From: an uncultured Candidatus Saccharibacteria bacterium
GTDB taxonomy: Bacteria; Patescibacteriota; Saccharimonadia; Saccharimonadales; UBA10212
Assembly (NCBI GenBank): GCA_964400155.1
Contig: CAYNSQ010000002.1
Location: forward strand, 6,797-70,796
Reading direction: 5' to 3'
Length of the DNA stretch: 64,000 nucleotides
The notes beneath the pieces were generated by a model. It was given only the letters and a program-made list of their open reading frames with translations. It had not been told where the DNA came from and did no database searches. Both the position numbers and the translations under genes were made by a program. Each line of letters begins with the position of its first letter. Position 1 is the stretch's first letter. Positions 3-1,066 of this stretch are shown one piece after another.

Positions 3-878
3 GTGATTGTACAAAAAGCTGGCGACATTATTCCCGAGGTTTTAGAACCATTAGTTAAGTTACGAGATGGCAGTGAAAAGAAATTTGTAATGCCCAGCAC
101 ATGTCCTGACTGTGATTCCGCTCTTGAAAAAAAAGCCGAAGATGCAGTCTGGCGTTGCCCCAATAACAATTGCCCAAGCCGTGTCTGGAAACATATCCAA
201 CACTATGCCTCAAAAGGAGCGTTAGATATTGAAGGACTTGGTGAAAAAAATGTGATGGCGCTAGTTGATGCGGGACTAATTAAGGATTCGGCTGATATTT
301 ATATAGTTAGCAAAGAAGACCTGTTACAGTTGGAGCGTTTTGCTGAAATAAGTGCAACCAAACTGGTATCCGCAATCGCAGACAAGAAATCCCCACCGCT
401 TGCTAAATATGTTTATGGTCTTGGTATTCGCCACGTTGGCGAACAAACGGCAATAGACCTAGCCAACAAATTCAAAAACCTACAATCCATCAGTACCGCG
501 ACAATGGAAGATCTACTGACCGTTGAAAACATTGGTGAGGTGGTAGCAGAAAGTATTGTGGCATGGTTTGCTGACCCAACTAATGTTAAATTGCTGGCTA
601 AATTTGAAAAGTTCGGTGTCAAACCGCAAGAAGTTAAATTATCAGGTGGCAAACTGACTGGCAAGAGTTTTGTGGTAACAGGGTCACTAGAGACTATGAG
701 CCGCGACGAAGCTGCTGATAAGATCAGATCTTTAGGTGGCACTTTCCAAAGTAGCGTAGGCAAAGACACTGACTTTTTGGTAGTCGGAGTAAATGTAGGT
801 GCATCTAAATTAGAAAAAGCTGCTAAGTTAGGCACCAAACAAATCACCGAATCAGACCTGTTAGAATTGTTGGGTTGA
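3..878 (+). CDS. ligA: NAD+-dependent DNA ligase LigA, C-terminal ~290 aa (5' end lies upstream of the window)
   Basis: ORF is open to the window start. It has the Zn-finger [24 protein letters not shown], helix-hairpin-helix region [12 protein letters not shown] and a C-terminal BRCT-like segment [10 protein letters not shown]...DFLVVG. Confidence 0.9.
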
Positions 879-903
879 CACCGAATAAGCATTAGCGTGT
901 AAT
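875..903 (+). promoter_or_regulatory. sigma70-like promoter TTGACA-17 nt-TGTAAT
   Basis: TTGACA at 875-880 overlaps the ligA stop codon. A 17-nt spacer leads to TGTAAT at 898-903. The predicted start near 910 coincides with the first base of the 911-920/1019-1028 helix. Confidence 0.5.
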
Positions 904-910
904 GTAGGGA

Positions 911-1066
911 GCTTCGCGCAAACCGGGCTCTCGGTTGTAGATTTTTATCTATGATTGGGCGAAACAAATAATAAAAACGGTTTGCAAAAAGTTAGATCGC
1001 TCGGGCCCACGGGTGGGCTGCGCGAAGCCAACAAAAACGCTCTGCTATCAAAGCAGGGCTTTTTTG
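911..1066 (+). ncRNA. candidate small structured RNA, unclassified (independent sRNA or cis-leader)
   Basis: A perfect 10-bp GC-rich closing helix pairs GCTTCGCGCA (911-920) with TGCGCGAAGC (1019-1028). Internal hairpins lie at 921-936, 938-951 and 1005-1018, with an A-rich segment at 961-990. The unit ends in an intrinsic terminator and has its own upstream promoter. Confidence 0.45.
1039..1066 (+). terminator. intrinsic terminator
   Basis: GCTCTGCT (1039-1046) pairs with AGCAGGGC (1052-1059) as an 8-bp stem with one G-U and an ATCAA loop. It is followed by TTTTTTG. Confidence 0.7.

Follow-up and report, generated by a model that had tools for sequence, protein, structure and literature searches.

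What is encoded in the short interval between the NAD-dependent DNA ligase gene ligA and the next gene of an uncultured Candidatus Saccharibacteria bacterium? The stretch analysed, hereafter the window, comprises 64,000 nt of a genome from this lineage (TM7, within the Candidate Phyla Radiation, CPR), and coordinates are window positions unless a locus of a relative (L numbers) is named. The window opens within the 3' part of ligA, of which the fragment encodes zinc finger, HhH and BRCT domains (Pfam) and the open reading frame (ORF) ends at 878. For positions 875-1066, the initial annotation had proposed a self-contained unit of promoter, structured RNA and terminator, to be read as a candidate small RNA (sRNA) gene or a leader; the positions it gave for promoter, long helix, hairpins, terminator and the TATAAT of the following gene were all found as described. 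We assign a probability of roughly 0.85 to the reading that 875-1066 belongs to an independent structured sRNA gene family. Judged by sequence comparison, this is a new RNA family of the bacterial small RNA gene kind, and it is Saccharibacteria-wide.

Homologues were collected by several routes. Species-representative genomes were scanned with the ligA fragment, which gave seven relatives (L001-L007), all of them metagenome-assembled genomes of Candidatus Saccharibacteria/Saccharimonadales. A homologue of the element was present within ~2 kb of ligA in all seven, namely directly after ligA in L003, L004 and L006, behind intervening genes in L002, L005 and L007, and on the opposite strand in L001. 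Metagenomes were scanned with a ligA alignment, then for the motif and finally with an initial covariance model (R1), and these scans added 13 members (L018, L021-L023, L026, L031-L034 and L036-L039). Contigs fetched via homologues of the downstream hydrolase gene had the RNA beside that gene in 12/12 loci and supplied the new members L218, L222, L223, L225, L227 and L229. The family thus comprises 27 distinct members of 74-125 nt. Model R1, which contained only the end-joining helix P1 and sequence, missed the clade of the window, and with filters off it found no member in 12 further ligA loci. A descriptor search that tolerated a single mismatch in the motif lacked specificity (68 matches vs 62 in reversed sequence), and a scan of a viral collection with the 14-mer GGGTGGGCTGCGCG returned chance matches only, in GC-rich phages.

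The initial annotation could not match the unit to the SRP RNA, 6S, ydaO, ykkC/mini-ykkC, TPP, purine or ZTP motifs, and the database search agrees. Using Rfam 15 at the gathering threshold, only tRNAs were found in the window and 17 loci; when three members were searched at E ≤ 10, weak chance matches were all that appeared, most of them due to the terminator (Thr_leader, STnc310 and the like). Signal recognition particle (SRP) RNA (RF00169) was rejected, as there is no model match and no GNRA tetraloop, the apex being a variable A-rich loop. 6S RNA (RF00013) was rejected for want of an Rfam match and on length, the members having 74-125 nt compared to a rod of ~150-200 nt. The c-di-AMP riboswitch (ydaO, RF00379) gave no match even at E ≤ 10. 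A hammerhead ribozyme was also rejected: CUGAUG occurs in some members and is not conserved. Genomes of Saccharibacteria and the wider CPR are tiny and hold very little non-coding DNA. A small RNA whose syntenic position is retained while the ligA sequence has diverged to ~50% identity is likely to be important. Searches of the literature yielded no description of such an sRNA in Saccharibacteria or the CPR, and a preprint of 2022 on the TM7x transcriptome reports no validated small RNAs in that organism (10.1101/2022.03.25.485537). The 27 members define a new covariance-model family for genome annotation.

The anatomy of the element is retained across these members. Each of the first 21 members is preceded by a sigma-70-like -35/-10 pair with 7-11 of 12 consensus matches, and in 19 of these the distance from the end of the pair to the first paired base of P1 is 6-10 nt. 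The -35 hexamer varies (TTGACA, TTGCGT, TTGTGT), as does the -10 hexamer, which is TGTAAT in the window clade and TATGCT, TATGGT, TATGAT, CATAAT or TATAAA in others. The promoter is also kept in L001, L218 and L002, where the element does not directly follow ligA. The RNA itself is framed by P1, which joins the 5' and 3' ends and has the core G(Y/R)RCGY. On the 5' side, P1 is followed by the joining segment J1/2 (0-5 nt), which is not conserved and in many members pairs within an alternative 5' hairpin (see below). The second helix, P2, has 5-11 bp and occurs in about ten different sequences, for instance GGCUCUU/AAGAGCC, GCGGCG/CGCCGC, GGGGUAC/GUGCCCC, AAGAGAAG/CUUCUCUU, UUAAAAA/UUUUUAA and GGCCUAAAA/UUUUAGGCC, and GGGCUC/GGGCCC in the window. 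It encloses an interior of 20-83 nt, mostly unpaired and A/C-rich, into which clade-specific hairpins are inserted; AAACAAA is present in 16/21 interiors and ACAAA in 19/21, often in two copies. In the smallest member, L032, the interior is a 20-nt A-rich loop only.

The most constant part of the RNA is a G-rich strand, GGGUGGGC, which begins 0-6 nt after P2 and is identical in 25 of the 27 members (GGUGGGC in L006 and GGGUGGGA in L222). The 3' strand of P1 follows it directly. A strong intrinsic terminator is present in most members, usually 5-15 nt after P1; in L031 and L032, P1 itself is followed by U7, and the terminator is ambiguous in L003, L004 and L021.

Selection on the paired structure was assessed from the two core helices. 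MAFFT alignments (A2, A3, A4 and A8) misalign P2, because the length of J1/2 varies. For pair counting, members were segmented by one fixed algorithm and placed in a gap-free, N-padded alignment (A7, 21 sequences). Standard pairs fill 97.5% of the 324 P1/P2 cells, and 14/17 pairs change on both sides, i.e. 7/10 in P1 and 7/7 in P2; since the registration of A7 maximises helices, these counts lean towards structure, a bias that the own-versus-cross test and the slid controls mitigate. The covariation score is 0.682 vs 0.176 ± 0.021 for shuffles (0/500 reach it), and slid partners give ≤ 0.11. For P2, the partner from the same member scores 5.5, vs 2.7 for crosses with other members and 2.1 for shuffled 5' regions, and crosses that equal the own score come largely from members with the same or a similar P2 sequence. 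The initial annotation had named covariation of the 911-920/1019-1028 helix as a check on its proposal, and the changes counted for P1 supply it. The later member L222 contributes a double compensation in P1 (GCGUG/CAUGC vs GCGCA/UGCGC in the window), and its P2, AGGGCC(C)/(G)GGCCCU, backs the family register over that of the minimum free energy (MFE) fold. G-U pairs are frequent in both helices, e.g. seven U-G at one position of P2. On the other strand these would be A-C mismatches, and promoter and terminator have the same orientation; the RNA is therefore encoded on the plus strand. As a separate observation, the fifth pair of P1 (A7 columns 5/54) is an A-G or G-A mismatch in one subclade of eight sequences, including L005, L026, L031, L034, L037, L038 and L039, while other clades have G-C, U-A or A-U. 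This purine-purine mismatch may be a conserved non-canonical pair.

Against this family pattern, the window can be read feature by feature, all on the plus strand. The -35 hexamer TTGACA (875-880) overlaps the ligA stop codon (876-878) and is followed, after a 17-nt spacer, by the -10 hexamer TGTAAT (898-903), which predicts a transcription start at ~909-911. TTGACA-N17-TRTAAT occurs once in the window vs 0.08 expected. The P1 5' strand GCUUCGCGCA (DNA GCTTCGCGCA) occupies 911-920 and is a perfect 10-bp complement of the P1 3' strand UGCGCGAAGC (DNA TGCGCGAAGC) at 1019-1028. J1/2, here AACC (921-924), forms the 5' side of the internal loop; it is short and variable among members. In the family-consensus register, the P2 5' strand GGGCUC (925-930) pairs with GGGCCC (1003-1008), whereas the single-sequence MFE pairs 923-928 with 999-1004, a segment that overlaps the P2 3' strand. 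The interior holds a clade-specific inserted hairpin, P3 (930-959; stem 930-942/947-959 in the MFE fold), the A/C-rich stretch GAAACAAAUAAUAAAAAC (961-978), unpaired in the MFE, and a small variable hairpin with an A-rich loop (979-998; stem 979-984/993-998 in the MFE), without conservation beyond the window clade. The near-invariant GGGUGGGC (1011-1018) is the 3' strand of the internal loop that separates P2 from P1. The unit ends with the intrinsic terminator (1039-1066; stem 1039-1046/1052-1059, loop AUCAA, U6 at 1060-1065), which has an A-run on its 5' side and is potentially bidirectional. Outside the RNA, TATAAT (1075-1080) stands 6 nt before the ATG (1087) of a CHAP/NlpC-P60-like gene, a leaderless-type promoter spanning 1075-1089 with the start codon.

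The initial annotation had drawn hairpins at 921-936, 938-951 and 1005-1018 inside the long helix. All three can form, but they are not part of the conserved core and correspond to clade-specific insertions or to the alternative fold. The hairpin at 938-951 is included in P3; relatives in the window clade keep a hairpin at this site with changed sequence (GGUUG/UGAUU vs GGCUG/CAGCU), and short members such as L032 have none.

Folding of 905-1070 gives -67.3 kcal/mol vs -43.8 ± 4.0 for shuffled sequences (z = -5.9; 0/200 as good). Inverted repeats of 10 bp within 130 nt are not rare in the window, where 87 such pairs were counted, and the P1 helix alone thus proves little. The comparative evidence is the decisive support for an RNA gene, not the features of the single sequence. 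Among other repeats in the window, a 13-nt perfect inverted repeat (GGATTCGAACCCC/GGGGTTCGAATCC) is located at 17069-17081 and 17155-17167; one arm is the T-arm of tRNA-Gln (17108-17181) and the other, just upstream, resembles a reversed tRNA fragment. The longest perfect long-range inverted repeat has 15 nt (CAATATCATTGCCAT/ATGGCAATGATATTG, 62373-62387 and 62495-62509), with arms 107 nt apart.

A second fold can be drawn for most members. In it, the inner P1 5' strand (GCGC...) together with J1/2 can base-pair with the nucleotides that follow immediately, and the resulting 5' hairpin is incompatible with P2 and with the inner P1 pairs. Hairpins of this type are GCGCCAAG/CUUGGCGU in L023, CGCAUUGG/CCGAUGCG in L037, GCAUAGG/CCUAUGC in L031, GCGCAU/AUGCGC in L006 and CGCUU/AAGCG in L021. 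Compared to shuffles, the mean z of this hairpin is -1.8, with 10/21 members below -2.2; L032, L033, L022 and L004 show it weakly or not at all. The 3' part released in this way forms a hairpin of a C-rich strand with GGGC(GC), in which (C)GGGU lies in the loop; the G-rich side of this hairpin cannot covary because it is nearly invariant. The single-sequence MFE of the window is of this second type (923-928/999-1004 and 1005-1009/1014-1018, with a CGGG loop), and the hairpin at 921-936 is the window equivalent of the alternative 5' hairpin. According to these predictions, bistability of the RNA between two folds is plausible, and binding of a partner or co-transcriptional folding may switch the RNA from one to the other.

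How such an RNA would work can be outlined as follows. Transcription would start ~7 nt after the -10 hexamer, at P1, and would end at the intrinsic terminator, with a product of ~120 nt for the core and ~155 nt including the terminator. The product would be a closed rod, in which P1 joins the ends, P2 lies inside P1 and an asymmetric internal loop with GGGUGGGC as its 3' strand separates the two. P2 would cap a largely unpaired A/C-rich interior with one or two AAACAAA-type motifs. The RNA would act in trans, not on the downstream gene, and an RNA-binding protein would recognise the G-rich strand and the A-rich single strands displayed on the P1/P2 scaffold. We consider the odds about even that the element is a stand-alone, trans-acting and probably protein-binding small RNA; a discrete transcript, action in trans and the identity of the partner are what we infer here. 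Taking an independent sRNA family as given, a protein-binding role would roughly take a little over a third of the weight, base pairing and cis-regulation about a fifth each, and something else the remainder.

Two properties of the RNA suggest a protein partner: the internal loop that holds GGGUGGGC is bounded by a helix at either end, an arrangement often seen at protein sites, and the A-rich single-stranded motifs are repeated. The RNA has a U-tail and A-rich motifs, features looked for in Hfq-dependent sRNAs. A tblastn search for Hfq and CsrA found neither in the window and ~0.8 Mb of loci, where no Crc gene was seen either, a sample that is uninformative for whole genomes. In Bacteroides, which has neither Hfq nor CsrA, sRNAs are bound in their single-stranded parts by RRM-1 proteins (PMC11697453; PMC13370968). 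A gene with an RRM_1 domain lies divergently adjacent to the Saccharibacteria RNA in seven loci of one clade, in both ligA and ABC-transporter contexts, in each case on the minus strand beside the RNA (L005 5571-5846, L026 7266-7565, L034 6302-6625, L037 7718-8035, L039 9840-10169, L225 2356-2670 and L227 2322-2645). It encodes a glycine-tailed protein of 91-109 aa with RNP2 LFVGSL and RNP1 KGFGFVE. This small RRM protein would be the only named candidate partner.

The intergenic region between the RRM gene and the RNA (minus strand, e.g. L039 10170-10410, L225 2671-2857 and L227 2646-2865) contains a putative 5' untranslated region (UTR) of the RRM gene with the blocks ...UGUUCAGAAGC... and ...GGUCGAUCUGA..., in which complementary UUCAGA and UCUGA flank a variable insert; GUUCAGA is present in 7/7 loci. 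This element has no sequence relation to the sRNA and may be an autoregulatory leader. An RRM gene is also found just after ligA, in convergent orientation, in four GC-rich contigs with a ligA 42-45% identical to that of the window (L069 6020-6262, L072 5381-5614, L082 6024-6248 and L090 5951-6184, all on the minus strand). The region upstream of this gene is long, with common blocks such as AAACGGCG(A/C)(C/A)AGC(C/T)TA ... CTTGTCAAAT, and a further conserved ORF follows the gene in all four. The Saccharibacteria RNA was found in none of these four contigs.

Several observations weigh against a stand-alone RNA acting in trans through a protein. The -10 hexamer TGTAAT has a G where the key A(-11) normally sits (hexamer position 2), and a strict promoter scan lists no promoter at 875-903 because of the G at this normally invariant position. 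The helix-favouring registration of A7 was mentioned above. The transcript is a predicted one, in its ends as in its abundance. Concerning the partner, the 64-kb window has no copy of the RRM gene, which is adjacent to the RNA in one clade only, and the motifs of the sRNA, when sought in the 5' UTR of the RRM gene, were not shared, a different conserved element being present there. In L222 and L223, the terminator was not found, and neither a terminator nor a promoter lies between the RNA and the coding region of the hydrolase; in these two loci the RNA is, by its placement, the 5' leader of the hydrolase gene. In L225 and L227, a block of RRM gene (minus strand), RNA (plus) and hydrolase (plus) is located in an ABC-transporter context far from ligA, and this pairing of RNA and hydrolase away from ligA hints at a cis or functional link. 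Finally, the search for base-pairing targets covered ~7% of one genome and thus leaves room for pairing with mRNAs.

Some of these points favour a cis-acting leader of cell-wall genes, riboswitch-like or protein-dependent, whose fold would be the sensor and whose alternative fold would control the hydrolase or a Mur ligase. The product of the gene at ATG 1087 has 150 aa and matches NlpC/P60 weakly (21.5 bits); for a homologue, CHAP and Amidase_5 are touched as well, and an exact look-up of the protein of the window retrieved no record. This hydrolase is adjacent to the RNA in 10/27 members and downstream on the same strand in 8/27, and the RNA stood beside every hydrolase homologue fetched. 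A Mur ligase gene is downstream of the RNA in 3/27 (L031, L034 and L039). The mutually exclusive hairpins of most members would suit a sensor, as would the loci just described in which the RNA abuts the hydrolase coding region or stays with the gene away from ligA. There is precedent for RNA motifs ahead of cell-wall hydrolase genes, lysM-TM7 and M23 among them (PMC5737381).

The arrangement of the family as a whole speaks against such a leader. Downstream of the RNA in about 15 members is either an unrelated gene or a tRNA, the latter in some cases on the opposite strand; neighbours other than the cell-wall genes are tRNA-Ala(GGC) on either strand, DUF4396, DUF3850 and pilin-like genes. Across the 27 members, no single functional gene class lies downstream, which differs from the location of a riboswitch. 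In L001/L219 and L218, the RNA and its conserved promoter are on the strand opposite to the hydrolase gene; together with the promoter spacing fixed in 19/21, this bears out the self-contained gene of the initial annotation. Much of the adjacency is accounted for by a conserved syntenic block, as seen in the gene order tRNA-Cys/tRNA-Leu ... ligA ... RNA ... (hydrolase) ... tRNA-Ala(GGC). In 12 loci, tRNA-Ala(GGC) is near the RNA on either strand, e.g. at 1574-1650 in the window and at L003 5076, L004 5083, L005 6148, L022 6775(-), L032 6515(-), L033 8537(-), L222 3594 and L223 3532. In L003 and L004, where no clear terminator precedes the tRNA, co-transcription and processing by RNase P are possible.

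Among the genes near the RNA, pilin-like ORFs with a prepilin-type N-terminus are located 3' of it in L037. The window itself encodes a 489-aa protein without a Pfam match at 3657-5126, whose C-terminal part (…LASHLEAFNAQNGYYPTLENLND…) resembles a pilin or pseudopilin when judged by eye.

The hydrolase gene also appears to have its own transcription signal. A -10 TATAAT or TAAAAT stands exactly 6 nt before its ATG in the window (1075-1089), L001 (~5745-5765), L002 (~5620-5642), L218 and L229 (~2985-3003). In these five lineages the gene has no Shine-Dalgarno (SD) sequence, and the leaderless-type arrangement persists where the RNA is inverted; for comparison, an SD-like motif was present within 20 nt at 15/58 crude gene starts of the window. 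That the downstream gene is transcribed independently as a leaderless mRNA, as had been suggested from the window alone, is thus upheld by the recurrence of TATAAT/TAAAAT-N6-ATG. The terminator behaves accordingly in predictions: none of the members offered an antiterminator pairing, removal of the 5' half leaves the terminator hairpin intact wherever there is one, and the 3' strand freed in this way pairs locally with the C-rich strand. A terminator insensitive to upstream sequence and varied downstream genes make a terminator-based riboswitch unlikely. This had been the fallback of the initial annotation; it gains from the 5' leaders in L222 and L223 and loses by the missing antiterminator and the varying genes. 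Overall, we regard a cis-acting leader of cell-wall genes as an improbable account of the family.

A base-pairing riboregulator would use GGGUGGGC, or the loop-exposed GGG, as a seed for C-rich (GCCCACCC-like) sites in mRNAs. Such an RNA would resemble cyanobacterial Yfr1 and mirror the C-rich loops of RsaE and 6C. An ultraconserved unpaired 8-mer between helices is typical of seed regions, GGG is exposed in both folds, and the architecture is that of an sRNA gene with its own promoter and a terminator with U-tail. Against this, the motif is enclosed between P1 and P2 as part of an internal loop, an awkward position for an intermolecular duplex of 8 bp. GCCCAC or CCCACC is found in none of the 58 predicted start regions (-60 to +30) of the window, where the single GCCCACCC site is antisense to a gene. 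Complementary sites recur across loci only at the 3' ends of tRNA-Leu(UAA) and tRNA-Val (GCCCACCA), which are base-paired in the mature tRNA; otherwise, single occurrences are scattered in coding sequences, with no recurrent position near gene starts. Examples of tRNAs ending in GCCCACCA, with CCA encoded, are tRNA-Leu UAA in L006 (941), L022 (2745), L032 (1141) and L033 (1078), while tRNA-Val in L021 (103) has a 9-nt complement, GCGCCCACC, to (U)GGUGGGC of the RNA. Because this strand is paired in the mature tRNA, its complementarity to the G-rich strand is probably fortuitous. A role in base pairing is improbable in our view.

That there is no RNA gene at all, and that the element is a structured 3' end or terminator region of ligA or a DNA-level site for recombination or protein binding, would fit its place after ligA in most genomes and the overlap of its -35 with the ligA stop codon, but is very improbable given the compensatory changes in 14/17 pairs and the strand-specific G-U pairs, which indicate selection on RNA structure, the promoter at a fixed distance, the genes that separate the element from ligA in many loci, its inversion in L001 and L218 and its position away from ligA in L225 and L227. 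The P1 core (GGTGCGCAT...) loosely recalls the XerC arm of E. coli dif; a dif site was rejected on account of the covarying helices and the lack of a XerD-arm-like sequence.

The preferred reading hence remains a stand-alone small RNA. Comparison of the loci establishes, at the level of sequence, its conservation, its covarying helices, the placement of its promoter and terminator and its independence from any one downstream gene. It offers a testable entry point into post-transcriptional regulation in Saccharibacteria, with the small RRM protein as candidate partner and cell-wall hydrolysis as candidate pathway. A bolder proposal, which we hold only tentatively and consider rather unlikely, is a regulatory RNA common to the whole phylum of the ultra-small, epibiotic Saccharibacteria that would toggle between the two folds, with GGGUGGGC and the A-rich strands read by a dedicated partner. 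If this partner were an RRM-type chaperone, the RNA and the protein would be the first pair of an sRNA and an RNA-binding protein of the CPR. If the trigger were a small molecule or a cell-wall-derived signal, the RNA would be a new kind of riboswitch-like sensor, working in trans and also, in part of the lineages, as the leader of a peptidoglycan hydrolase gene needed for the epibiotic lifestyle. Should it be only an ordinary riboregulator, the gain would mainly be better annotation.

Of the known systems, the lysM-TM7 motif is similar in taxon and gene context, as it is found in TM7/Saccharibacteria and often near a peptidoglycan-hydrolase gene. The RNA described here differs in its own terminator and its varied neighbours, and its hydrolase has no LysM domain. 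The motif is presumably contained in Rfam, of which no model matches the RNA; among described elements, it is the one with which the RNA might conceivably be identical. The lysM-TM7, lysM-Actino, lysM-Prevotella and M23 motifs are described as 5' UTR elements of lysM or M23 genes, for which the authors saw no binding of c-di-AMP (Weinberg et al. 2017, PMC5737381).

RbpB with FopS/GibS of Bacteroides (PMC11697453) is similar in that a small RRM protein is involved, the counterpart here being the RRM_1 gene beside the RNA in seven loci. FopS, however, consists of a 5' single strand and a terminator and is not a closed rod, and the partnership considered here is a candidate drawn from gene adjacency. 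In shape, the RNA recalls 4.5S SRP RNA: both are rods with paired ends (65-125 nt) and a conserved asymmetric internal loop, encoded at a single-copy, housekeeping-like locus in reduced genomes. It lacks the domain IV loops of the AGCA/GGAA type, in contrast to 4.5S RNA. CrcZ/CrcY (A-rich AANAANAA) and CsrB/RsmZ (GGA) likewise display unpaired repeated motifs on a scaffold and are stand-alone genes with a terminator. Compared to these, the present RNA is smaller, has 1-2 repeats instead of 5-20 and carries the invariant G-rich strand in addition. Yfr1 is a short, phylum-wide, single-copy sRNA of cyanobacteria with an unpaired ultraconserved motif whose flanking helices covary. Its own promoter and terminator, the ultraconserved unpaired motif and the covarying flanking helices are all shared with the RNA presented here. 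In Yfr1 the motif, ACUCCUCACAC, is a seed in the linker between two hairpins, whereas here the G-rich strand lies in an internal loop closed by the helix that joins the ends, and the two have no sequence similarity. By analogy, the nearest functional counterparts of the Saccharibacteria RNA would thus be phylum-conserved sRNAs of the Yfr1 type together with protein-titrating sRNAs.

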